DNA of 64,000 nt. It comes from Ostreococcus lucimarinus. Taxonomy: Eukaryota. Below the pieces are notes generated by a model, which made no database searches, was not told where the DNA came from, and saw nothing but the letters and a program-made list of their open reading frames with translations. Below are positions 7,384 through 54,758 of this stretch, one piece after another. Position 1 is the first letter of the stretch. Each line of letters begins with the position of its first letter. The position numbers and the translations under genes are program-made. The stretch is from assembly GCA_000092065.1 (NCBI GenBank), contig CP000590.1, one strand, 5' to 3'.

Positions 7384-8888
7384 AAGTAAACACGGATAAC
7401 TGCAACTCATTGTACCGCGCGATCTACTCGCGCAGCGAGACCTCGCGCGGGCCGCGCGACCTCGTTCGCCGGTGTACTACTAATACCTCAATCCACCTTT
7501 TTAACCACCCTAGCGAGTACAGTAGCTCATAACGACACATCACACTACTATCTCACCTCTGGCCACGCGCGTCGACGCACCCCGCGCGCGATCGGTCGAT
7601 CGTTCAAGCGCGCGTTCGAACGATCGCTCGATCGACATCGTCCGCGCGGCCGTTCGCTCGCGCGAAACCCATCAACCGCGCATCGAATCCGTCGGTATCC
7701 GCGCGCGCCGTCGCGTCGCGCGTCCCACCTCCTCCCATCGCCGCCGTCGCGCCGCCTCCCATCGCCGCCGTCGCGCCGCCTCCCGTCGCCCGTCCCCCCT
7801 CGACCGCCCGCTCGAGTTTCGGATAGCGCGAAAAAGCGATTCGTCTACCCCCGACCGACGTCCGCGCGTACCGCGCGCCGCGCCGACGACCGACGCCGCG
7901 ATCGACGCCCGCCCGCATCGCATCGCGTATTACGCGCGTCCGCGACCCCATGAGCGTTTCGAGACTCGATCGCGCGCACCGCGCGCGTCCCGCGCCGGCG
8001 CCCGGGCGTCCGCGTCCGAGTAGCCCAATCGACGAAACGGCGAAAAAAAGGGGTCGCGTCGACGCGAGCGTTACGTCGCGGCGGCGCGATTCGCGTTAAA
8101 TACGACGCGATCGCCATGTAAATAAAGCGCGCGCCGTAACGCTCGCGTCGCGGGCCGCGCGGAGACGCGTCGCGTCGCGTCCGCGGAGACGCGTCGCCGC
8201 GCGTCGACACACCGAGTCGCGACGCGCGCGCGAGTCGGACGCGGCCGACGCGCGCGCGACGACATCGCCGAGATCGAGCCTCGCGAGCGTCCATCGCGGT
8301 GCGTGCGCGCGCGCGACGCGCGCGATGACGCGCGGTAGACGAATCGCTGAAAAGTACATTCATATCTTTTCGAACGGCGCGCGCGCGGCGACGGAACGAT
8401 CGCGCGAACGATCGCGCGCGCGCGAAACGCGATGGATGTACCTATTTGTCTTAGGGTCCACGTCCGCGCGCGGGACGACCCGACGGACGGTGTCGACTGA
8501 CTCGAGCGTCGGCGGCGCGCGCAGGTCATCTCGCTCGCTCGCGCGGGGACGCGGCGGCGCGGCGACGCTTCTTCGTTCGCTACTTTGCGTCGGGAAATTG
8601 AAAAGGCGCGACGAGATGTCGATGGAGGATGATTTAGAATTGCACCTCGCGGAGTTTATCGATGAAGAGGGGGCGTTCGACGAGTGGTGCGTGGACGACG
8701 CGGAGGGACGCGACGCGACGCGGGAAATCGACGGGACGGCGGCGAACGCGCGGAACGGCGAGCGCGAGGAAACGGCGAGCGCTGACGATTAGAACGACGA
8801 TGACGATGACGGAAATGACTGACTTTGACGCGTTTGTACGCGATGGATCAACCGTAGGTGCGAAGCTTCGATCGATTTCGACGCCTTT
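7384..8888. repeat. 1.5-kb CpG-rich low-complexity intergenic block (CGCGACGCG-type). It contains short tandem repeats, e.g. a ~24-bp unit ccatcgccgccgtcgcgccgcctc at ~7738-7800 and gcggagacgcgtcgc x2 at ~8141-8200. A 9-bp inverted repeat cgatcgttc...gaacgatcg lies near 7600-7630.
   Basis: Read directly from the sequence. All ORFs here are Arg/Ala-rich in every frame, and none has a recognisable domain. Confidence 0.6.
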
Positions 8889-10299: not shown

Positions 10300-11271
10300 T
10301 CACTGATTCAGCGGCGGATGCACCAATACATACTCCTCCGCGTACGCCCCCGTGCGATCATCTCCCTCATCACACGCCACGGGTGCGCACGACTTCGAAC
10401 ACGTGTACACGGCGATTGACCCAAAATCGAGCGCGGAGTCGCTCTCGGCGTCGACGCCGAGCTGACTGATGATTGTGGGCAAAATCTGAAACTCAAATTT
10501 TCTCGGCGCGCCGCACCGTTCGCAGTGCGGAATGTTATCCGTATTCGGCGCGTGCGTCACCGACGGCCACAGCGGCTTCGCCCCGGGCTCCGGGCAATAC
10601 CTCAACACCTGCTCCGGGTCGTTCTTCAGCATGACGTGAAACGTCGCCAACTGCTCCATATCCTCATCGACCACCGCAGCCTCGATCGCGTCGATCTCTT
10701 CCGCGGTCATGTCCCCCCCCACGTCACCATCCACGCACTCCACTCCCCCCATCGCGTCTCCCTCCCCTCGCTCCTCCGTCTCCACCACCAACTCGTACTC
10801 TGGATACGTCTTCGTCGCCGCCGCGCTCGCGTCCCACCAATCGCACCTCGCGCGCCGCGTCGCCGTCTCCTCCGCCGTCAGCGCGCGCCCCGCTTCTCCC
10901 TCCGCCACCGGATCCCACCCGTAGAACGCGTTCGCCCTCGGAAGCTGTCCCCTGAACGCCCGCGCGCCGCCCCTCGCGTGCGTCTCGCCCCCTCGCGTCC
11001 CGTTCACGAACACGTACACCGTCCGATGAAACGCGCTCGCCTCCGCGTCCACCGGCGCGTACACCTGGCACAAAAACGCCATTCGCTCCCCCTCGTTCGT
11101 CTCCAGCGCGCTCGCCCGCGGCACGCGCACGGGATCCATCCACGCCGGCGCGCCGCCCGCCTTGCTCGGAAACCGCCACGCCTCGAGGTCGTCGTCCCGT
11201 CGCGCGCGCTCGAGAAAGCCCAGCGACCACTCGCGGTCGTCGCTCAGCGCGTCGTCGTCGTCGTCGTCCAT
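10300..11271 (-). CDS. PDCD2/TSR4-like protein with a PDCD2_C domain.
   Basis: The C-terminal signature is HCERCGAPRKFEFQILPTIISQL...LDFGSIAVYTCSKSC. The N-terminus is acidic (MDDDDDDALSDD). An ATG sits at 11271 on the minus strand. Confidence 0.7.
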   Translation of the reverse strand: MDDDDDDALSDDREWSLGFLERARRDDDLEAWRFPSKAGGAPAWMDPVRVPRASALETNEGERMAFLCQVYAPVDAEASAFHRTVYVFVNGTRGGETHARGGARAFRGQLPRANAFYGWDPVAEGEAGRALTAEETATRRARCDWWDASAAATKTYPEYELVVETEERGEGDAMGGVECVDGDVGGDMTAEEIDAIEAAVVDEDMEQLATFHVMLKNDPEQVLRYCPEPGAKPLWPSVTHAPNTDNIPHCERCGAPRKFEFQILPTIISQLGVDAESDSALDFGSIAVYTCSKSCAPVACDEGDDRTGAYAEEYVLVHPPLNQ

Positions 11272-11779
11272 GGCGCGCGCGTCTCGCGCCGTCGCGCGCC
11301 GTCGCGTCGCGCTCTGTCGCGCGGCGTCGCGTCGCCGCCGCCGGTCGCCTCCGGGGGACGCGCGTCCGTCGACGCGCGGCGCGGCGCGCGACGCGACGCG
11401 CGGCGCGCGCGACGGACGCGCGTATTTTTTCCGCGCGCGGCGTCGCGCGCGGAACCGCGCGCGCGACGTCGCGGCCGTCGCGCGCGGCGCGGATCGAATC
11501 CGTCGTCGGTCGGCGCCGCAGAGCCGCGCGCGGGATTGGATTGGATTCGCGCGCGGCGTTCCTTCGCGCGCGATGTCGACGTCGCCGCGCGGCGCGAGCC
11601 AACGCGCGGAGACGAGCGGAGGTGCGCGGAGACGCGCGATCGCGGACGCGACGACGACGCGAGGGCGACGGATTGGGACGATTCGACGAGGACGCGCGAT
11701 TTGAAATGATTCGCGCGCGAAACGTCGAGGACGCGCGCGCGATCGAGGCGCGAGGGCGAGGAACGGTGAGACTGACGCG

Positions 11780-14197
11780 ATGCGCGCGATGCGGACGCGC
11801 GATCGGGACGCAGACGCGCGAGAGGCGATGGAGACGGCGGCGAAGACGGTGTCGAAGCTCGCGGCGGACGCCGAGCAAGCCGACTTGGTGGAACTGCTTC
11901 GAGAGGCGCCTCGGGAGGCGTATTCGTTTCAAAACGCGGGATGGCCGAGCGATGTGGTGGGTATGAAGAAGGAGGAACTGCCGGGGGTGGTGCTGGAGCG
12001 GTACAACACGCGGCAGTCGGTGTGCTTTTGCGGGGTGCTGCCGGAGATTTCGCGCGCGTGGGCGAGCGTGGACAACGCGTTGTTTTTGTGGAGGTTGGAC
12101 GTCGCGGACGACGTGCCGGTGGAGTACAGCGGCGAAGAGCAAGCGATCGTGGCGGTGGGGTTGGTGAAACCGAAGAGTGGGGTGTTTTTAGAGGCGATCT
12201 CGTACGTGCTCGTCATCGCGACGACGGTGGAGCTCGTCATGGTGGGGGTGTGCTTGGAGGACGACGGACGCGAGCTCACGCTGCATCCGCTGCAGTACTC
12301 GTGCCCGACGGACGCGACCATCATGAACGACATCACGTCTACGCCGGAGGGTAGGATCTTCTTAGCCGGTGCGGACGAAGCGCTTTATGAACTCGTGTAC
12401 GCGCAGAGCGACACGTGGCACAGCAAGCGATGCAAAAAGGTGCGACACAGTCAAAACTTGTCCTCGCTGTTGCCTTCGGTGCTGCGATTGAAGGGCTCGG
12501 ACGCTTTGAAACAAGTCGTCGTGGACGCCAAGCGCGGGATTTTGTACACGCGCAGCGAACAAGGCGTGGTGGTTGTGTACGACGTCGGCGCCGCGGCGAA
12601 GGACGCGCCGAGAAAAGTCGCCGAGGTTAAAAACGTCGCGCAACTCGCCGCGCAGGCTCGCGGTCAAGGGTCTCTGTTTGCATCGGCGACGTCATCGGTG
12701 AAGAAAGGGGCGAAGTTAGTGCACGTCGCATTGGTGCATCCGGAGGAGTCGTCCGTCGTGACGTTGGTGGCGATTTGCGCGGATGGAAGACGCATTTACC
12801 TCACCGCTCTTCCGCCGTCGCGCGGGTACTCGTACGGCGTCGCCTCGGGTACGGGTAGCTCTCGACAAGGGCCTTCGCGACTGTCCGTGGTCGAACAACG
12901 CGACCCGCCGCCGCAAGGAGGAAATCAGCGCGGTATGACGACGGCGCAGGCGCTCTTGAACACCACGTCGAGGGCCTTGGAAATTGAAGCCGGGTTTTAC
13001 AGCAGCGGCGTTTTGTTACTGTCGGACGCGACGCCGAACGACTCTGACGCGCGATTGATACTTTCAAACCGCGACCTGGCGCTACCCCCACACTTGCAGT
13101 TGCCGCCGCCGACGCCCCCACCGAGCTCGGGAAGCGGCACTCGCGGTTTGCGCGAAGTCGTCACCTTGGAACAACTTGAAGGGCGCTGCGCGTCGAGTCT
13201 CGGATCGCTCGGTGAGATTCCTATGCCAAAGAGCGTACAGGACGCGATCGATCCGCCATACCCCACGGGGACGCTTCCAGAAGCACGTGTAAAATCGACG
13301 GGACTACTCTCTGAGCTCGTCACGCAATACATGTGCCCGAGAAGAACGTTTGTGTTGATGACCAACGCCGGGTTGGTTCGATTCGAGAAGGCGCGCCCGA
13401 TTGACACGTTGAGAAGTGTTCTTGAAAAGAACATTCCGGAACAAATCGAGGAGTTCTTTAAGAGTTACGGACCGATTGAAGCTGCGGCAATGTGCGTCGC
13501 GTTATCTGTTTCGGGATCCGAATCCAACGCCGTGATCCTCGCCGCGAAGCGGGCCTTTGACGACCCGCGTCTCACCGGCGAGCCGAGCATCGTGGAGGAT
13601 AGCTACGCGCAAAATCAAGAGAATAATGGTGGATCTTTCAACATGGGGCGTGCGATCGTGCAACCGGTGCTGACTTTTTCGTCGGCGCAGCGTGGACTGT
13701 ACTTGTTCACGGCTCGCATAATGTCTAGCACGTGGGAACGAGCGATCATTGTGCCCGTTCGCGCGCCCGTTCAAACGAATTTGAACGGCAACTCGCGACC
13801 GCTATCGCCGGCGATGAAGATCGCGAACAAAGCGCTCGGCGCGGTGCAAGCGGCAGCTCGGTACATGAGTGAAGAACCGGCGCTCAGATGCTCCTTGGAT
13901 CCGACGTTGCTCAAGAATTTGCACGATCGCTTGATGCCGTTGGTGACTTTCTTGAAGCAGCGTAGACCGCGCATTAGCAGCGGCGCCACGATGTCGCAGA
14001 CGAAGCGGCGTCGAGTGCGTTCATCCGGCAGCGAACTCACGGCACTCCAGGAAGAAGAGCGCAGTCTCTCGGCCCTCTCCGCCTTGGTGAGCCGCACGGC
14101 GCAGGCTTTGTCTCTCATTAGAATCATCATCACTGATGAACGTTTCTCACGAGTGGCCGACATGCTTCCCTCGGCGATTCGCAAGGAGCTGTCACAG
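11780..14197 (+). CDS. NUP155: Nucleoporin Nup155/Nup170 homologue, exon 1 (N-terminal beta-propeller).
   Basis: Nucleoporin_N-like sequence: NALFLWRLDVADDVPVEYSGEEQAIVAVGLVKPKSGVFLEAISYVLVIATTVELVMVGV. A GT donor (caG|GTACGT) lies at ~14198. Confidence 0.8.
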
Positions 14198-14239
14198 GTA
14201 CGTTTCCGCGCTCCTACGCCTCGTCTTTTCTTTTTTGCC

Positions 14240-14325
14240 TGCGCGATGATGATTTCCCATATATCAATCTGTCAATCCCCTGATTCACAGTGATGACAAC
14301 TCATATGGTGCCCTTCCACTGAGCG
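14240..14325 (+). ncRNA. Candidate intron-encoded box C/D snoRNA in Nup155 intron 1.
   Basis: Canonical order and spacing are present: C box AUGAUGA (~14246-14252), D' CUGA (~14280-14283), C' GUGAUGA (~14290-14296) and D CUGA (~14319-14322). The C-to-D distance is ~77 nt. The intron is AT-rich, unlike the surrounding GC-rich DNA. Confidence 0.4.
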
Positions 14326-14395
14326 TCCACTTTTACTTTTCCGCGCTGTGTTCTTCTGAGACTTTCGACTGACTTTTTGTTTTACACTGCGACAG

Positions 14396-14833
14396 CTCAC
14401 CTTGAAGAAGTTGGTTTCGACGACGCACGGGGCGCGTTTGGCGGGTGCGCTCATCGAAGCGATGATGTCTCACATAATGTCTCACGCTCGTCACAGCGCC
14501 GAGGAATTAGCTGCGGAGCTCCAAAAGGGATGCCCAGACTTTTTCGGCGCAGATTCGAGGACATTTTACCACGCCAGAGACTTGTTGCAGTTGGCGCGCG
14601 ACGCGCGCGCGAGAAAGGAAAACGTCTTGCGCGACCAATACGTGAACGATGCGATCGCTTTATTCATGAAGGTGCCGACTTCTGGAGACTTATCGGCCGT
14701 TTGTGCTGAACTTGTCGATCTTCGCGCGTTTCATGGCGTCACCGCTGTGCCCCTCGCGGCGGCGGCGGCGCTCGAGGCGCGCGCAGAGGAAGCTCGTTTT
14801 ACGATGCATTCGCAACCGAATGTGGACATGGTG
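14396..14833 (+). CDS. NUP155: Nup155 homologue, exon 2 (phase 0). Intron 1 is ~14198-14395 (198 nt, GT..AG).
   Basis: An acceptor ...cgacAG|CTCACC precedes the exon, and the frame continues in frame with exon 1. A donor GTG|GTAAGT lies at ~14834. Confidence 0.75.
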
Positions 14834-14919
14834 GTAAGTTTATCTTGACCTCAAATCTCGAAAGAACTTCGTTGCGATGAAGACGAATCTGATACGTGAA
14901 CGTTCGGCTTACCGCCGGG

Positions 14920-15022
14920 CGTGCCGTGATGATTAAAAACTACAGAACATCTAAGCCTGAGCGACGGCGAATCATTCTCGGCTCGAGTCACGACGGGATC
15001 GCGAAAATCTCTTACTGACGAC
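14920..15022 (+). ncRNA. Candidate intron-encoded box C/D snoRNA in Nup155 intron 2.
   Basis: A C box GUGAUGA (~14926-14932), internal CUGA (D', ~14957-14960) and D box CUGA (~15015-15018) are present, about 90 nt apart. A terminal stem is not obvious. Confidence 0.3.
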
Positions 15023-15042
15023 AAATTTTTACCGCATTATAG

Positions 15043-16482
15043 GATCTCCAATCGTGCTTTGAAGTCACGTGTACCACGATTCGGGCGCTTGCGACTGGAA
15101 GGGCTGATGCGGACGCTGAACCAGGTTCGCTGAGTCGCGTCGCGGCGGAAGAACTTCCCGAGGACATTCGTGAACGAGGTCTCGTGAAGATTCTAGAGCA
15201 GCTTCAACGAGTGTCTGGAGCTGACTCACAAGATTTCATGCACCGCGTATTTGCGGAGCTGATTGCAGTGAGACGCGACGCCATGCTTTTATCGCTACCC
15301 GCGGCTATGTTGGAACCGTACTTGGTGAACAAGAGCGCGTTGACGTCTGCGCAACAAGGCGGCGCGCTCACGCCGGATGAGGCGAGACATCTCGATCTCT
15401 TGGCGCAGTTGTACGCCGCCCGAAGTCTGTTTGGATTGGCGGCACAGGTCGATTGCTCGTTAGCGGAGCGTCGATGCGCGAACGACGAAACGTTCAGTTT
15501 GGACCAGCGCATGGCTTTGTTTGAGCGCGCGCTCATGCACGCCAGAAAGTCGGTCGACGGGGGATTGACCAATGGTTTGGACACGTCGTTTTGCGAAAAC
15601 GTCGACAGCAAAATCAAATTGCTCGACATGCAGCGGCGAGTGCTGGGCGTGTGCATAGAGCGCTCCCGTCAAGCACGCGCCACCGGATCGTCGAACGCTC
15701 CGGAGGAGGCGTTTGTGTACGAATTGGAGCGCGAGTTGAAGCAACTGAGCGACTTGTACAACGACTTCGCCAAGCCGTGTGAGTTGTGGGACATCTGCCT
15801 CGAAATGGTGCACTTCTCGCAATACCACGATCCGGATGGCGAGATTGTGTGTGACTTATGGGATAAGCTCCTCTTACAAGCCGCGTCTCGCGCGCCGAGC
15901 GCCGCGACGTGCCTGCGGGAAGCCTGCCTCGTGGTTCGCGCGTTGGGCGTGAAGTTGTTCCCATCGGACGTCGCGTTTCCGGTCATTCACGTGGCTTTGC
16001 GTTTGGAGCTCATGGCGGCAGGACTGTGGGGTGTTCCCGATGTCGCAGTCGAAGCGCACGTCGACGATGAGTATGACACGAGCGAAGTCGCGGACGCGCT
16101 CGTCGTCGCGTGCAAAGGACTCGCAGAGCCCGTGCAACGAGCGTACGACCGCTTGCTCGCGACCCCGGCCCAACGCATGCACGATAAGCGTCTGTCGAAA
16201 GTGGATGCGTTACAAACCCCGCGTTTGCGCCTCCGCTTGCTCAGATCGGTGTACTTTGTGCTCCAGCTTTGGGACCAGTCGCTCGTGCCCAAGGCGACGG
16301 CGTACGGCGAACCGAGAGCGTACGCCACCGGAGGCCACGTGCGCGCGGCGATCGGCGACTTGTGCGTGAGCTACGCCTCGGAAAGCCGACGAATGCAGTG
16401 TCCGAATGAGGTTATTCGCGCGAACGCCGAGGAACTCGCCGCCGCTTTCGACACGTTCGGCCGCCGCTTGCTTTCTTCGTAG
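15043..16482 (+). CDS. NUP155: Nup155 homologue, exon 3 (alpha-solenoid C-terminal part). Intron 2 is ~14834-15042 (209 nt).
   Basis: A polypyrimidine tract plus ttatAG acceptor is at ~15042, and the in-frame extension of the 15184 ORF (DLQSCFEVTCTTIRA...IRERGLVKILEQL) reaches back to it. The assembled protein is ~1431 aa, typical for Nup155. The stop codon TAG is at 16480-16482. Confidence 0.75.
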   Translation, partial: DLQSCFEVTCTTIRALATGRADADAEPGSLSRVAAEELPEDIRERGLVKILEQLQRVSGADSQDFMHRVFAELIAVRRDAMLLSLPAAMLEPYLVNKSALTSAQQGGALTPDEARHLDLLAQLYAARSLFGLAAQVDCSLAERRCANDETFSLDQRMALFERALMHARKSVDGGLTNGLDTSFCENVDSKIKLLDMQRRVLGVCIERSRQARATGSSNAPEEAFVYELERELKQLSDLYNDFAKPCELWDICLEMVHFSQYHDPDGEIVCDLWDKLLLQAASRAPSAATCLREACLVVRALGVKLFPSDVAFPVIHVALRLELMAAGLWGVPDVAVEAHVDDEYDTSEVADALVVACKGLAEPVQRAYDRLLATPAQRMHDKRLSKVDALQTPRLRLRLLRSVYFVLQLWDQSLVPKATAYGEPRAYATGGHVRAAIGDLCVSYASESRRMQCPNEVIRANAEELAAAFDTFGRRLLSS

Positions 16483-17231: not shown

Positions 17232-18359
17232 GGGTTTAAACTCCGCCTTGCACTCCGCCTCGACGTCGTCGTCCCCCTCCTCGTCATCGTTCCCGGTCTT
17301 TTCCTCCGCCTTCGGCGCCTCCTTCGACGCGAACTTCGACGGATCGAAACCTCCGCCCGCGGCCGCGGCGCCGAACCCTCCCTGCGCGAACGCCGCGCCG
17401 AAGATCGGCGTCGTCGTCGGCGGCGCCGTCTGTCGACATGCATTCAGATCGCGCCTTCGTCAGTCCCTCGTCGCGCGTCGTCGCGCGCGCGCGTCACCGG
17501 GTCGTCGCGCGGTCGTCGCGCGTCGCGAGCGTCCGTTCGCGCACCTCGTTCGCGGCGTCCTCGCTCATCGCGCGCGATCGATCGCGTCGCGATGTGCGGC
17601 GACGCCCTCGCGCGCGGCACTCCATGTCGACCACCGGAGCGCGCGCGCGCGACGACGGCGGCGGGTCATCGACGCGCACGTGCGTGGGGGTGACGACGTT
17701 CGACGACGCGCGCGAGAGTCGACGCGCGACGCCGGTGCGCGACGCGCGACGCGAATCTTCCGAATCCGCGAATCTTCCGTCGACGCGAATCGACGGCGAA
17801 TCGACCGACGCGCGCGACTGACGAGCGCGCCGACGCCCGCAGACGTGCTACGGATTCACGCGCCGGCGAGACGCGGCGCTGCGCGAAGAGCGGCGGACGC
17901 TGCGCACGGGGGACGTCGTCGGACGGTATCGGTACGCGTGCCTGGGACGAAGCGCGCGCGCGGTGCCCTTCTACGCCGAGGGACGACGCGCGCCCACGCT
18001 GGAGGAGCGCAAGCGCGGGACGGAGTTCCCGGTGTGCCAAGGGCTGGAGGTGCTCGTCGCGGAGAGAGTGGACGAACGCGCGGCGCGGCGCGGCGACGGC
18101 GACGCGAGCGAAGACGACGCGACGGACGCGGCGATGCGAAAGCGCGTCGGCGCGCGGGAGATCAGGGAGACGCGCGAACGCGAGCTCGGCGCGAGCGCGG
18201 CGTTGGAGCGGTTCAACAGGAGCGCGGGGAAAATTTCAGCCAACATGCGGCGACACGCGAAGTTCATCGGCGACGGCGCGTACTCGCTCTTCTTCACCGG
18301 CGGTCGGCGGTCGTGAACCGTGGGTCGAGCGCGCGACGCGCGCATTCTTTGTAATCACG

Positions 18360-21346: not shown

Positions 21347-21420
21347 CGTCGCGCGCGCGCGAGTGTCGGGACACTTTTCGCGAAAAAGTGAAAAAGCGCA
21401 CCGCCGCACTGTCGGCCGCG
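21347..21420. promoter_or_regulatory. 74-bp interval between the divergent ATGs of the ALDH10 and GABA-T genes; a presumed bidirectional promoter with 5'UTRs.
   Basis: This is inferred from the head-to-head geometry. It contains an A-rich stretch (cgaaaaagtgaaaaagcg). Confidence 0.4.
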
Positions 21421-22923
21421 ATGCTCGCGCGCGCGCTCGAGCGATGCGCGCGACGACGCGCGCGCGAGGCGATTTCGCGCGCGTCGCGCGACGCGCGCGC
21501 GTCGACGCGCGCGTCGTCGTCGTCGTCGCGCGCGGGGACGTCGAACGGTGAACCAGCCGCCCCGGTGGTGCGGACGCCCATCCCGGGACCGGCGTCGCGA
21601 CGCGCCGTGGAAGCGCTCAGCGCGCACGCGGACGTGGGGTCGATACGATACTTCGTCGACGTCGACGCTTCGCGCGGGAATTACGTCGTCGACGCGGATG
21701 GGAACGCGGTGCTGGACCTGTACGCGCACATCGCGTCGCTGCCGGTGGGATACAACCACGAAAAGATGCTCGCGGCGATGCGAGACGAAGCGAACGTGGG
21801 GATTCTCGCGCACCGACCGGCGCTGGGGAATAACCCACCGATCGGATGGGACGACAGAGTGGCGCGAACGCTCATGCGAGTGGCGCCGAAAGGGTTGACG
21901 CGCGCGACGACGATGGCGTGCGGGGCGTGCGCGAACGAACACGCGATGAAGGCGGTATTCATAAGCGCGGCGAACGCGCGGCGGGGCGGACGCGAGATAA
22001 GCGAGGAAGAAAAGGTGAGCTGTCTGACGAATCAAGCGCCCGGGTCGCCGGGATTTAAAGTTTTGTCGTTCGATGGTGCGTTTCACGGACGGACGGCGGC
22101 GTGTCTGTCGCTGACGCACACAAAGTGGATTCACAAGCTTGATTTCCCGACGTTTGACTGGCCGTCGTGCCCGTTTCCGAAATTAAAGTACCCACTGGAT
22201 AAATTTGAGCGAGAAAACGCCGAAGAGGAGGCGCGGTGTCTCGCTGAAGTCGAGAAGGCGTTGACGCGAGATCGAGACGTCGTCGCGGTGATCGTCGAGC
22301 CCATGCAAGCGGAGGGCGGCGATAATCACGCGAGCGCGGATTTTTTCCGAAAGCTTCGCGCTTTGACGAAGAGAGAAAACGTCCGCATGATCGTCGATGA
22401 GGTGCAGACTGGGTGTGGATCGAGTGGGACGTTTTGGGCGCACGAAGCTTGGGGATTAGAACATCCGCCGGACATTGTGACGTTTAGCAAAAAAATGCAA
22501 ATCGCGGGATTCTACGCGGCCGCGGATCTCGCGCCCGAGCTCCCGTACCGCATCTTCAACACGTGGATGGGTGATCCAGCAAAGCTCATTCAGCTCGAGG
22601 TTGTCCTCGATTGCATAGAAGAGCATCATTTATTGGACGTCGTGAAATCCGCCGGCGAGACGCTCTTGAATGGGTTGCGCGAGTTACAGGAGAAATATCC
22701 GAGCATTCTCGCCAATGCGCGGGGCGTGGGCACGCTTGTCGCCATCGATTGCGATACATCCGCGCGCAGGGACGCGCTGTTGCACGCACTCTTGCAAAAA
22801 GGTGTCGACATCGGCGGGTGCGGCTCGGCGACCATTCGCGCGCGTCCGGGGCTCTTGTTTACTTCGGCGCACGCGGGGGTGTTTTTAGAGCGGTTCGAGC
22901 GAGTCCTCGCTGCTGAAATGTAG
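21421..22923 (+). CDS. 4-aminobutyrate aminotransferase (ABAT-type class III PLP aminotransferase) with a mitochondrial-type presequence. The track ORF starts at 21388 with GTG.
   Basis: EPMQAEGGDNHASADFFRKLRALTKRENVRMIVDEVQTGCGSSGTFWAHEAWGL...PDIVTFSKKMQIAGFY. The N-terminus is Arg/Ala/Ser-rich (MLARALERCARRRAREAISRASRDARAS). Confidence 0.8.
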   Translation: MLARALERCARRRAREAISRASRDARASTRASSSSSRAGTSNGEPAAPVVRTPIPGPASRRAVEALSAHADVGSIRYFVDVDASRGNYVVDADGNAVLDLYAHIASLPVGYNHEKMLAAMRDEANVGILAHRPALGNNPPIGWDDRVARTLMRVAPKGLTRATTMACGACANEHAMKAVFISAANARRGGREISEEEKVSCLTNQAPGSPGFKVLSFDGAFHGRTAACLSLTHTKWIHKLDFPTFDWPSCPFPKLKYPLDKFERENAEEEARCLAEVEKALTRDRDVVAVIVEPMQAEGGDNHASADFFRKLRALTKRENVRMIVDEVQTGCGSSGTFWAHEAWGLEHPPDIVTFSKKMQIAGFYAAADLAPELPYRIFNTWMGDPAKLIQLEVVLDCIEEHHLLDVVKSAGETLLNGLRELQEKYPSILANARGVGTLVAIDCDTSARRDALLHALLQKGVDIGGCGSATIRARPGLLFTSAHAGVFLERFERVLAAEM

Positions 22924-22938
22924 TCATTTTTATTCAAT

Positions 22939-23868
22939 CTATTGAACTCTGTAGATCATCGAACCCGTGCGCCTGGCGACGTCTTCGGGAGATTCCACCG
23001 CTTCTAAAGCCGCAAACACGGCACGCACGGTGTTGTGCGGATGGTGACTGCCGTGAATCTTCGCTTTGATGTTTTTAATACCCGCCAGCGTGCAAATCGC
23101 CTCCACGGTGTCGTTCGCCACGATCCCGTCTCCGCTCGGCGCGGGTAACATCACGCAAATCGTCTTACAGTATTTTCCCCTCACCTCGTGATAAATCGTG
23201 TGATCCTCGAAGCGTTGCACGTACGTCAACGACCTCGCCGCCTTGCGATACGCCTTATCGATCGCCATCCCCACATCCGCGCCTTTACCCGTGGCGAACC
23301 CGATGACGCCATCACCGTTCCCCACGACCACCATGGCGGTGAAATTCGTCAAATCGCCTCCCTTGGTTACCTTTGTCGTCCTGTTGACGTCGATGACGCG
23401 CGTCTGGAGCGCTCGCCGCTGGCGTCCGCCCTCGTTTTCGTCCCCACCATCTCCACCAACGTCCGCGTCCACGCGTCCTTTCAGCGCTAAATTCAGTAAG
23501 AATCGCTTTCGTTTATTCGGCGCGTTTTCGAATCGTTCGAACAGCGCCTCGTACTGTCGCCGCAGCGCCTCGTCTTCGTCTTCGTCGCCGTCCCGACCGC
23601 CTGAGCTCGAGCTCGAGCTCGCACCCGCGTCGCTCGACGCCGCGAATCCCCGTCGCGCGCCCGCGAACGCGTCACGACGGTTGTGATCACGCGTTCGCGC
23701 GTCCGCGCCGACGCCGATCGTCCGCGCGCGCGTCGTCGTGGCCGGCATCGTTCTCCCGGCTTCGAGCGACGCCGTCGCAAAGGTTGCCGACGACGACGCG
23801 CACGCGGTCGCCGCGCGCGCGCGCGCGGCGAGGGAAGTCGCGAACGTTTTCACGGCGCTGCGTGACAT
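22939..23868 (-). CDS. Organellar (bacterial-type) ribosomal protein S5, nuclear-encoded. The track ORF starts at 23988 with TTG; the first ATG is 23868.
   Basis: S5 dsRBD and C-terminal domains: VIDVNRTTKVTKGGDLTNFTAMVVVGNGDGVIGFATGKGADVGMAIDKAYRKAARSL...GSHHPHNTVRAVFAALEAV. The N-terminus is presequence-like. Confidence 0.8.
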   Translation of the reverse strand: MSRSAVKTFATSLAARARAATACASSSATFATASLEAGRTMPATTTRARTIGVGADARTRDHNRRDAFAGARRGFAASSDAGASSSSSSGGRDGDEDEDEALRRQYEALFERFENAPNKRKRFLLNLALKGRVDADVGGDGGDENEGGRQRRALQTRVIDVNRTTKVTKGGDLTNFTAMVVVGNGDGVIGFATGKGADVGMAIDKAYRKAARSLTYVQRFEDHTIYHEVRGKYCKTICVMLPAPSGDGIVANDTVEAICTLAGIKNIKAKIHGSHHPHNTVRAVFAALEAVESPEDVARRTGSMIYRVQ

Positions 23869-24004
23869 CGTTCGAGCGCGCGCGCGGGGCAGCGCGCCGT
23901 CGAGTGCGGCGCGATCGAGAATGAAGGGTTTTTTGAAGCCTTGGCGCGACGCGCGGCTCGACGATGTTACAAGAAGAATAAGAATCAAGTGCTGGTGTGA
24001 GACG

Positions 24005-37352: not shown

Positions 37353-37544
37353 GTGCGTGCGACGCGCGAACGCGCCGACGACGCGACGCGATGATCCGAT
37401 TCGTTGGGTGACGATGGCGCGGCGACGGGGGGCGCGGTGGCGCGCGCGCGAGGCGTGGATCGCGGCGATGAGACGCGAGGCGCGGTGAGGCGCGCGCGAG
37501 CGCGAGGACTGACGGACGACGCGGCGAACGCGCGACGCGCGCAG

Positions 37545-38931: not shown

Positions 38932-39223
38932 CTATTCGCGTCGTCACGTCGCGTCGTCAGTCCTCATTCGCGCGTCGCGTCGCGCATTTCGCGTCGCGAG
39001 GGGAACCACGACGAATTTGAAATTTTCAAACCGTCGCGCGCGTCGCGTCGCGCGTTCGAGCGCTCGCGGGCGACGCACCGCGTTCGTGATGTCATCGCAC
39101 ACGTCTTTCGAGCGTTCGCGCTGTTCGCGCGCGCGCGCGCACGGAATCGGGTCGGGCATGCGCGCGCGATTATGCGGCAACAGCCGGGCGTTTGGCACCA
39201 ACACGACTAGACTACGGCTATCG

Positions 39224-40687
39224 CTACGGGTATAGCGCGTCGCGGGCGTCCGCGTCCAACGTCAACTCGCGATCGCCGAGGTTGACGTACCAATAAATAG
39301 CGCCAGAAACGTACACGAAGGCGATGACGGCGAAGACTAAGGACCAGGAATCGGAGGCGTCGAGGATGGCGCCGCTGACGGGCACGGCGAGCGCGCCGGC
39401 GAGCGTGGCGGCGGTGTTGCCGGTGGCGAAGACCATGCCGGCGTGTCGAGGCGCGATGTCTAGATGCGAGACGCTCACGCCCGCGAGTGTCAGGGCGGAG
39501 AGCGCGAGACCGAGGTCTACGGCGACGGCGGCGAGCGTGGCGTTGCCTTCGGCGAGCGGCGACGCGGCGACGAGGAGGCACAGCGCGGGGCCGAGCGTGC
39601 CGGCGCACTGCGCCGCGCGTCTCACCGTTTTCACCCGCACGTTTTTGTTGTGAATGAGGTCGTCTGCGATGATACCGACGCCGAATCCGAGGACGCCTTG
39701 AAGAATGTACGGCGCGAACGTGAAGGCTGGGAGGTCGGCCAAATCGACGCCTTGCGCCTCGTTAAAGTACGTCGGCAGCCAACTCAGAAGGCCGTACATG
39801 CCCCAGCTCTGCGTGAATTGCGCGACGCAAATCGCGCGCACTTCCTTGCGACGTATCAGCTCCGTCCAAATCGCGAACGACGCCGGCGGCTTCGTCGCCG
39901 TGGCGCTCGATTCCGCGATGAATCGTCTCGTCTCCGCGTCTTCGATTTCATCGTCTACGCCGCGCGGCTCGCGATGGTCCGGAAGTGCGAACCAAAACGG
40001 TGCCCACAACAGCGCGATCGCGCCAAAGCTATAAAACGCACTCGGCCATCCGAACTCGCTCACTAATCCCGGCGTCACCGCGAACGCGAACGCCGCGCCC
40101 GCGTAGGAAGCCGCAGTCACCGCCGCCACCGCCGTCGACCGCTTCTCCCTCGGCACCTCTCTCGCGATGAGCGCGTGACACGCCGGAAACGCCAAACCCT
40201 CACCCATGCCCAAAATCACCCGCATCGCGATCAACGGCGCGATCCCCGCGCGCGCCGCCGCCGGCGTCAGCGCCGTCGCCGCCGACCACGCCGCGACGCC
40301 CCAACCCAGCGTCGTCTTCCCGCCCGCTCGATCCGCCCACCGTCCTCCCACGATCTGCGTCGCCCCGTATCCGTAAAAAAACGCGCTCAGCACCAACCCT
40401 TCCTCGAATTTATCCCACCCGAACCCATCCTTCATCGCGACGATCGCGGTCGAAATGTTTGAGCGGTCCGCGTAGCACGTCGCCACCGCGAACGCGCACG
40501 CCGCCGTCGTCCCGAGCCAGGCTCGTCCCGCGTCCGCCTCGCGCCGATCGCGCGCCGGCGCGTCGCCGCCGCCGTCGCCGTCGTCGTCGTCGTCGCGCGC
40601 GAGCGTCGCGAGCTCGATCTCGCGCGTCGCGCGCGCGTCGTCGTCGTCGCGCGCGCGCGAGAGTTCGTTACGTCCTCCCGTCGCCAT
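39224..40687 (-). CDS. MFS transporter of the SLC17/PHT4 anion-transporter type (487 aa from the ATG at 40687). The upstream part of the 800-aa track ORF is antisense to the GT2 gene.
   Basis: About 12 TM segments. MFS motifs: GRWADRAGGKTTLGWGV, MRVILGMGEGLAFPACHALIAREVPREKRSTAVA and ...DIAPRHAGMVFATGNTAATLAGALAVPVSG. Confidence 0.75.
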   Translation of the reverse strand: MATGGRNELSRARDDDDARATREIELATLARDDDDDGDGGGDAPARDRREADAGRAWLGTTAACAFAVATCYADRSNISTAIVAMKDGFGWDKFEEGLVLSAFFYGYGATQIVGGRWADRAGGKTTLGWGVAAWSAATALTPAAARAGIAPLIAMRVILGMGEGLAFPACHALIAREVPREKRSTAVAAVTAASYAGAAFAFAVTPGLVSEFGWPSAFYSFGAIALLWAPFWFALPDHREPRGVDDEIEDAETRRFIAESSATATKPPASFAIWTELIRRKEVRAICVAQFTQSWGMYGLLSWLPTYFNEAQGVDLADLPAFTFAPYILQGVLGFGVGIIADDLIHNKNVRVKTVRRAAQCAGTLGPALCLLVAASPLAEGNATLAAVAVDLGLALSALTLAGVSVSHLDIAPRHAGMVFATGNTAATLAGALAVPVSGAILDASDSWSLVFAVIAFVYVSGAIYWYVNLGDRELTLDADARDALYP

Positions 40688-54347: not shown

Positions 54348-54758
54348 CCGCGCCTCTTCCCGCGCCTTCGCCTCGCGTCTCGCGACGCGCGCGTCCTCGT
54401 CGTCCGCGGTCGCGCGTCGCGCCTTGGCCCGCGCGATGGCTTCTTTTCGTTTCGCCGCCCACGCCGCCGCCGCGCTCGACGCCTATCGTTGCCCGCGCGC
54501 GACGAACGCGCCTTCGTCAGTCCATCGTCGCGTTCGTTCGCGCGATCGTCGTCGTCGATTCGTTCGTTCGTTCGTGCGTCATCGCCAGGGGAACAAAGAC
54601 GCGCGACGGCGCGATGGTCGACGCGTCGGTCGACGCCCATCGCGACGCGCGACGCCCATCGCGCTCGAGCGCTCGCACGCGGTTACGTTCGCGTCGCGTC
54701 GACGCGCGCACCTTCGCCGCGTCCATCGCGGCGTCGTCGACTGCGGACGCCGGCGGAC

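Follow-up and report, generated by a model that had tools for sequence, protein, structure and literature searches.

Why does a nucleoporin gene in the compact, intron-poor genome of the green alga Ostreococcus lucimarinus retain a pair of AT-rich introns, and what do these introns encode? The question was raised by a preliminary description of 64,000 nucleotides of contig CP000590.1 (assembly GCA_000092065.1), the whole of which we term the window. It remarked on hallmarks of box C/D small nucleolar RNAs (snoRNAs) in the two introns that it found in a Nup155 gene, at 14198-14395 and 14834-15042, and put forward snoRNA hosting as a reason for their persistence. The first proposition is upheld here: boxes, terminal stems, guides, conservation confined to the RNAs, covariation in the second of them and orthology with RNAs of O. 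tauri together make it very probable that each intron encodes one sense-strand box C/D snoRNA, and that the two are the orthologues of Ot-CDsno90 and Ot-CDsno91.

The Nup155 introns and the RNAs within them

The host gene and the two introns in question are laid out as follows:

11573-16482, plus strand: Nup155-type nucleoporin host gene, with exons at 11814-14197, 14396-14833 and 15043-16482 (stop codon included) and a probable exon 1 at 11573-11621
14198-14395, plus strand: host intron of snoRNA-1, 198 nt, phase 0, GC content 0.464, with the branch-point motif CTGAC at 14369-14373
14834-15042, plus strand: host intron of snoRNA-2, 209 nt, phase 0, GC content 0.464, with the branch-point motif CTGAC at 15015-15019

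Removal of the two GT..AG introns, the first running from GTACGT to CAG and the second from GTAAGT to TAG, fuses three open frames in phase 0. The spliced product, of 1431 amino acids, carries the Pfam domains Nucleoporin_N (1.1e-79) and Nucleoporin_C (6.7e-54), so that we class the predicted protein as a nucleoporin of the Nup155/Nup170 type; a search with it found no named homologue among NCBI or UniRef entries. Both introns are, as had been stated, AT-richer than what surrounds them, their GC content of 0.464 comparing with 0.58-0.60 in the adjacent exons and 0.628 in the window. The Nup155 coding region itself, at about 0.58-0.60, lies under the window mean of 0.63.

Each intron carries one RNA, on the plus strand like the host. 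Features of the first are these:

14241-14326, plus strand: box C/D snoRNA-1, 86 nt, orthologue of Ot-CDsno90 and sole conserved block of its intron
14241-14244 with 14323-14326, plus strand: terminal stem of snoRNA-1, GCGC/GCGU
14246-14252, plus strand: box C, AUGAUGA
14264-14278, plus strand: D' guide, 15 nt, complementary to 18S GGAUUGACAGAUUGA
14280-14283, plus strand: box D', CUGA
14290-14296, plus strand: box C', GUGAUGA
14306-14317, plus strand: D guide, 12 nt, complementary to 18S GGAAGGGCACCA
14319-14322, plus strand: box D, CUGA

The canonical order C, D', C', D claimed for this intron is thus exactly what is found, with AUGAUGA at 14246, CUGA at 14280, GUGAUGA at 14290 and CUGA at 14319. 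Terminal stems, which the preliminary description suggested seeking, are present in both RNAs, of 4 bp in snoRNA-1 and 6 bp in snoRNA-2; that of snoRNA-1 is one pair longer (5 bp) in its relatives, and 97% of its cells in the alignment are paired. Scanning both strands of the 64 kb for RUGAUGA followed at 50-120 nt by CUGA, and closed by a terminal stem of 4 bp or more, returned a single element, snoRNA-1. First-order Markov simulations of the window (n=100) averaged 0.21 such sites, and the full C-D'-C'-D order appeared in none of the 100. Searched against Rfam at a permissive threshold, snoRNA-1 matches plant snoR14 (RF01280) over the full length of the model, with 35.0 bits and E=7.5e-5. 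Folding of the single snoRNA-1 sequence was uninformative (z = 0.08), as is expected for C/D snoRNAs.

The second RNA departs further from the textbook form:

14870-14966, plus strand: box C/D snoRNA-2, 97 nt, orthologue of Ot-CDsno91, to whose span the conserved block is confined
14870-14875 with 14961-14966, plus strand: terminal stem of snoRNA-2, 6 bp, retained in the centroid fold
14877-14883, plus strand: variant box C, AUGAAGA; relatives have AUGAUGA, UUGAUGA, GUGAAGA or AUGACGA
14896-14899, plus strand: degenerate D'-like element, GUGA, presumed to be D'
14901-14908 with 14914-14921, plus strand: internal hairpin, 8 bp with a UUACC loop, between the D'-like element and C'
14926-14932, plus strand: box C', GUGAUGA, taken at first for box C
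14943-14955, plus strand: D guide, 13 nt, complementary to 18S CUUAGAUGUUCUG
14957-14960, plus strand: box D, CUGA

For this intron the preliminary description had proposed a single unit of the form GUGAUGA ... CUGA ... CUGA. The three strings are indeed there, at 14926, 14957 and 15015; the unit is not. Alignment with relatives shows GUGAUGA at 14926 to be C', the true box C being AUGAAGA at 14877, and the last CUGA, at 15015, falls outside the conserved block, as part of a CTGAC branch-point motif located 24 nt from the 3' splice site.

Support for the structure of snoRNA-2 comes from substitutions. Across seven related sequences, in which the figures that follow support a structure and are not to be taken as a probability, 94.9% of the cells in its helices are standard pairs and 5 of the 14 pairs have changed on both sides. 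The terminal stem is paired in 90.5% of cells, with both sides changed in 2 of its 6 pairs, and the internal hairpin, also present in the centroid fold, in 98%, with both sides changed in 3 of 8 and an invariant UUACC loop. None of 500 column shuffles matched the covariation score, and when the 3' partners were slid by 1-3 columns as controls, pairing fell to 29-44% of cells. In L132, one of the relatives described below, the loop-closing pairs differ (GGGGCUUACCGACAC), and that lineage may have a remodelled hairpin.

We also considered the region upstream of C' as the site of a D' guide. The best run of complementarity to rRNA in the whole C-to-C' region is 8 nt, a length equalled in 278 of 300 shuffles, and the spacer is unconserved; this candidate was rejected. 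With rRNA complementarity no better than chance and pairs that covary, we read the conserved block between the D'-like element and C' as a predicted structural hairpin, not a D' guide.

Conservation, orthology and predicted 18S rRNA targets

Relatives were retrieved from metagenomes with the protein segment encoded by exons 3-4, which is 86-91% or 45-49% identical to its metagenome counterparts; these contigs, L001-L010, L131 and L132, include nine that are distinct. When whole introns were compared with them by BLAST, only positions 44-130 of the first snoRNA intron and 62-131 of the second aligned, and these are the two snoRNAs. MAFFT alignments give the same picture: conservation is seen in the snoRNAs, at the splice sites and at the branch-point motif, and the intron flanks cannot be aligned. 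Every lineage sampled keeps both introns and both snoRNAs, down to about 48% protein identity, and L001, L003-L006, L010, L131 and L132 share this layout. Three of these, L010, L131 and L132, are lower in GC (0.45-0.51) and share 45-49% identity in Nup155; they are marine lineages, possibly Bathycoccus-like, and have both RNAs in the same two introns:

L131, 1000-1917: both snoRNAs
L132, 560-1400: both snoRNAs
L010, 3639-4531: both snoRNAs

In snoRNA-1 of the lower-GC lineages AUGA replaces the D' CUGA and the spacer between D' and C' is longer; in L010 and L131 the 3' part of the intron carries a (TG)n microsatellite. Within the RNAs, conservation is highest in the guides, boxes and stems. 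Each of the three guides is unchanged or almost unchanged across the relatives, the D guide of snoRNA-1 being invariant in all.

Counterparts whose expression has been demonstrated are known from O. tauri. A nucleoporin gene of that species, ostta10g02140, described as Nup133/Nup155-like, carries Ot-CDsno90 in its intron 2 and Ot-CDsno91 in its intron 3 (PMC7671301); by RNA-seq the two RNAs accumulate to 5733 and 161 transcripts per million (TPM) respectively, give single northern bands and are uncapped (Bousquet 2020, NAR Genom Bioinform 2:lqaa080, PMC7671301). Table S5 of that work gives orthologues, found by BLASTN, for O. lucimarinus, O. mediterraneus, Bathycoccus and Micromonas, with CDsno91 absent from Micromonas 1545 (PMC7671301). 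Between snoRNA-1 and the published Ot-CDsno90, 81 of 89 positions are identical (91%, with 8 substitutions or indels), and between snoRNA-2 and Ot-CDsno91, 78 of 97 (80%, with 19); L003 is nearly identical to the published pair. In all three guides the segments that pair with rRNA match those of O. tauri, except for a 2-nt swap in Ot-CDsno91 as printed. The printed guide reads ACAAGACAUC, and L003 (1112-1209) and every other lineage have ACAGAACAUC; the swap would break the pairing with 18S and probably reflects a typographical error in the supplement or a difference between strains.

The preliminary description had also proposed a search for complementarity to rRNA next to D and D'. Such complementarity exists: the guides form Watson-Crick runs of 15 nt (snoRNA-1 D'), 12 nt (snoRNA-1 D) and 13 nt (snoRNA-2 D) with 18S rRNA. 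To place them, metagenome contigs were scanned for the guide complements in the order expected for 18S (GGAAGGGCACCA, N55-80, GGATTGACAGATTGA, N185-215, CTTAGATGTTCTG). This pattern, with about 40 specified nt, has matches in at least 120 contigs. Rfam recognises two of these, L011 (1761 bits) and L050 (1723 bits), as SSU_rRNA_eukarya, and in them the pattern falls inside the small-subunit (SSU) rRNA. In L011 a single nucleotide separates each duplex from the adjacent box, and the fifth guide positions of snoRNA-1 D', snoRNA-1 D and snoRNA-2 D lie opposite U1234, A1155 and A1448, exact matches that are partly a matter of construction, the rRNA loci having been found with a pattern built from the guides. 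What is informative is that the pattern exists at all and that it falls in 18S. The spacing between sites, 79 nt in most loci and 291 nt in many, is that of the published O. tauri positions A1123, U1202 and A1414.

The D' guide of snoRNA-1 would accordingly direct modification of the first U of GGAUUGACAG (the first U of GGAUUGACAGAUUGA), equivalent to O. tauri Um1202; its D guide, of the second A of GGAAGGGC, the predicted O. tauri Am1123; and the D guide of snoRNA-2, of the first A of CCUUAGAUG, the predicted O. tauri A1414. These are the assignments of Table S4 for the O. tauri RNAs, where CDsno90 is given 18S Um1202 and Am1123, with SNORD110 and At-snoR14 as homologues, and CDsno91 is given A1414, with At-snoR19 as homologue (PMC7671301). 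The first of the three has an experimentally mapped equivalent: Arabidopsis 18S Um1235, detected by RiboMeth-seq, is assigned to SnoR14, and a review table equates it with human Um1288 and O. tauri Um1202. The literature tables thus give the snoRNA-1 D' site as that of human U1288, SNORD110 and At-snoR14, which has no yeast equivalent. Its identification with yeast Um1269, the site of snR55 and SNORD33, was considered and is excluded by the spacing to the other sites and by the same tables.

Proposed processing of the RNAs and persistence of the introns

If the RNAs follow the route established for intronic C/D snoRNAs, the host pre-mRNA would be transcribed and spliced and the intron lariat debranched, after which exonucleases would trim the intron from both ends until halted by the small nucleolar ribonucleoprotein (snoRNP), whose proteins Snu13, Nop56, Nop58 and fibrillarin would be assembled on the kink-turn that the terminal stem forms with boxes C and D. 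In snoRNA-2 the covarying hairpin would join the degenerate D' to C'. The mature RNAs, of about 86 and 97 nt, would then pair with 18S rRNA, and fibrillarin would 2'-O-methylate whichever nucleotide faces the fifth guide position counted upstream from D or D'.

The geometry of the introns bears on this route. The branch-point A follows the end of box D by 50 nt in snoRNA-1 and by 58 nt in snoRNA-2; in 13 introns of seven lineages (L001, L003-L006, L010 and the window) this interval is 50-65 nt, and the 3' splice site lies 72-102 nt from box D. Despite the constant distance, the sequence between box D and the branch point is unconserved. In mammalian cells about 50-65 nt is the range reported as optimal for splicing-coupled processing, and the constancy of the distance fits splicing-coupled assembly of the snoRNP.

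Does the presence of the RNAs explain why the introns persist? As an explanation, snoRNA hosting is a plausible hypothesis, compatible with the data. Of 131 snoRNAs in O. tauri, 72 are intronic and 59 are not (PMC7671301). Nearly all are single-copy (PMC7671301), and loss of an intron would therefore be loss of its RNA. That every sampled lineage keeps both introns with both RNAs, and that the flanks drift but the branch-point spacing stays constrained, point the same way. A fuller version of the idea, in which a single-copy essential snoRNA protects introns from loss in Mamiellales, the pair has been kept in place, at a fixed distance from snoRNA to branch point, since before Ostreococcus parted from the lower-GC, Bathycoccus-like lineages, and A1123 and A1414 are real lineage-specific methylations, is put forward tentatively, the balance being in our view somewhat against it.

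The competing explanation, which concerns this secondary claim alone, accepts the snoRNAs as real and holds that they are not the cause: the introns would have been kept for other reasons or by drift. We give it a serious chance, a little short of even. Other introns speak for it. The TEX261 intron (37353-37544), which had been called GC-rich and without a complete C/D pair, is indeed so: its GC content is 0.766, the window scan finds no C/D architecture in it and Rfam returns no match at E<=1. It persists in the same window without a snoRNA, and the same is probably true of a further intron of the Nup155 gene itself:

11573-11621, plus strand: probable first exon of the Nup155 gene, 16 codons, with ATG at 11573
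11622-11813, plus strand: probable first intron of the Nup155 gene, 192 nt, GC content 0.69, phase 1, with no signs of a snoRNA

This candidate reads GTGCGC...CTGAC...GCAG, and protein conservation with L001, L005 and L010 begins exactly at 11814, with CTGAC and AG just upstream in each of the three, so that the position too is conserved. The existence in O. tauri of so many non-intronic snoRNAs shows, moreover, that other routes to expression are available. Against these points stand the retention of both introns in every sampled lineage, the held branch-point distance and the single-copy state of most intronic RNAs, as set out above.

The same candidate intron alters the preliminary count of three introns in the window, two of them in Nup155: those listed stand, and the count is probably incomplete, since the splice and branch-point motifs and the point at which conservation begins make 11622-11813 a probable Nup155 intron that had not been listed. 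Such an intron would also agree with the numbers 2 and 3 given to the snoRNA introns of O. tauri. A crude scan for splice sites, branch points and continuity of open reading frames (ORFs) gave more candidates, at 8687-8857 and 17680-17842 on the plus strand and at 38932-39314, 39460-39608 and 54483-54711 on the minus strand; they are unverified, GC-rich DNA being prone to long spurious ORFs, and the original count for the window may be too low on their account as well.

The snoRNA assignment itself has several points against it. Evidence of expression, size and cap structure comes from the O. tauri orthologues. At gathering thresholds a search of the whole window against Rfam gives zero matches, no family reaching its score: snoRNA-1 falls short of that of snoR14 (35 versus 40 bits), and for intron 14834-15042 at E<=10 there is only a meaningless 12-bit fragment of sR14, so that the Rfam comparison proposed in the preliminary description helped with snoRNA-1, through a sub-threshold match, and gave nothing useful for snoRNA-2. 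The terminal stem of snoRNA-1 is invariant and carries no covariation information, and box C of snoRNA-2 is off consensus (AUGAAGA), although canonical or near-canonical in the relatives. As for the targets, the circular element in the choice of rRNA loci has been mentioned; one of 300 shuffles of the 12-nt snoRNA-1 D guide matched the ribosomal DNA (rDNA) equally well somewhere; A1123 and A1414, like the O. tauri methylation sites in general, are predictions, not measurements; and both of these are absent from the methylation lists of Arabidopsis, human and yeast.

Such points could suggest that the conserved blocks are not stable snoRNAs in O. lucimarinus, being decaying relics, for instance, or conserved splicing-regulatory elements. 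The Rfam scores below gathering thresholds would suit this reading, as would the weak accumulation of Ot-CDsno91 in O. tauri, yet we consider it very improbable: it is the guides, boxes and stems that are best conserved, with guides invariant across lineages, compensatory changes preserve the stems of snoRNA-2, and near-identical RNAs have been detected by northern blot in O. tauri. Still less credible is transcription of the snoRNAs from promoters of their own within the introns, in place of processing from the spliced intron. Independent snoRNA genes do exist in O. tauri, where ten are intergenic (PMC7671301), but all intronic O. tauri snoRNAs, this pair included, are uncapped (PMC7671301); both RNAs lie on the sense strand, one per intron, at a constrained distance from the branch point, and the intron flanks upstream of them are short (43 and 36 nt) and unconserved. 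That the boxes are chance motifs in AT-rich sequence can be regarded as refuted, for although short strings such as CUGA recur at random (four in intron 14198-14395 and three in 14834-15042, one in each being part of the branch point), the full architecture is expected about zero times per window, conservation is restricted to the snoRNA spans, three guide complements co-occur in order in 18S rRNA, the snoRNA-2 stems covary and the RNAs are orthologous to published, expressed ones. Two intronic box C/D snoRNAs thus remain the reading that we favour by a wide measure.

Elsewhere in the window, sharp GC peaks of 0.75-0.82 at 11200-11500, 17400-18100 and 21400-21600 coincide with gene starts and intergenic spacers. 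Two further ORFs deserve mention:

22939-23988, minus strand: organellar (bacterial-type) ribosomal protein S5, 349 amino acids
24005-25723, minus strand: CofD, 572 amino acids, Pfam CofD 3.4e-38 (2-phospho-L-lactate transferase / YvcK family)

In NCBI the S5 protein is represented only by a partial O. lucimarinus model of 148 amino acids (CCE9901, XP_001420155.1), in the same 90%-identity cluster; the O. tauri protein is 80% identical. As the 349-residue ORF is identical to the model at all 148 positions, the public S5 gene model looks truncated. A CofD-family protein is unusual for a green alga.

Comparison with known snoRNAs

The pair described here is not new: what O. lucimarinus carries is its copy of Ot-CDsno90 and Ot-CDsno91, and their presence in that species was tabulated in 2020 (PMC7671301). 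The two pairs share the host gene, consecutive introns, order, sizes (86 and 95 nt as published), guides and predicted 18S targets. They differ in box C of the second RNA, which is UUGAUGA in O. tauri and AUGAAGA in snoRNA-2, and in the nature of the evidence, expression having been shown for the O. tauri RNAs, whereas the O. lucimarinus orthologues were recorded there by BLASTN presence alone (PMC7671301). Biologically, then, little is added to a pair validated in O. tauri in 2020. What the present analysis adds is evidence from several uncultured lineages that the RNAs are conserved and that pairs covary, the internal hairpin, with covarying pairs, in the CDsno91 family, and the 50-65 nt constraint between snoRNA and branch point, together with exact coordinates for two snoRNA genes. 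It shows too that real intronic snoRNAs can be recognised from sequence alone, and the added comparative data make the idea of intron retention testable by genome-wide comparison.

Among plant and animal RNAs, the nearest to snoRNA-1 is plant snoR14 (RF01280, clan CL00076), with whose consensus its D' guide shares UCUGUCAAUCC followed by CUGA. Plant snoR14 and human SNORD110 target the same 18S uridine (Um1235 in Arabidopsis, experimentally mapped; Um1288 in human). The other mapped target of Arabidopsis SnoR14 is different, being 25S U803 in place of the 18S A1123 predicted for the D guide of snoRNA-1, and plant snoR14 occurs in polycistronic clusters, whereas snoRNA-1 stands alone in one intron.

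For snoRNA-2 the counterpart is Arabidopsis snoR19, which targets the same segment of an 18S helix, CCUUAGAUG; no Rfam match ties the two together. The mapped SnoR19 sites are G1434 and U1448, and Um1448 corresponds to O. tauri U1412; the site predicted for snoRNA-2, A1414, lies 2 nt further 3'.

In general form both RNAs resemble the C/D snoRNAs encoded in introns of animals and intron-poor yeast: there is one per intron, on the sense strand, about 50-65 nt upstream of the branch point, with a terminal stem and C and D boxes. The host here is a nucleoporin gene and not one for a ribosomal protein or for translation; this is no difference in kind.

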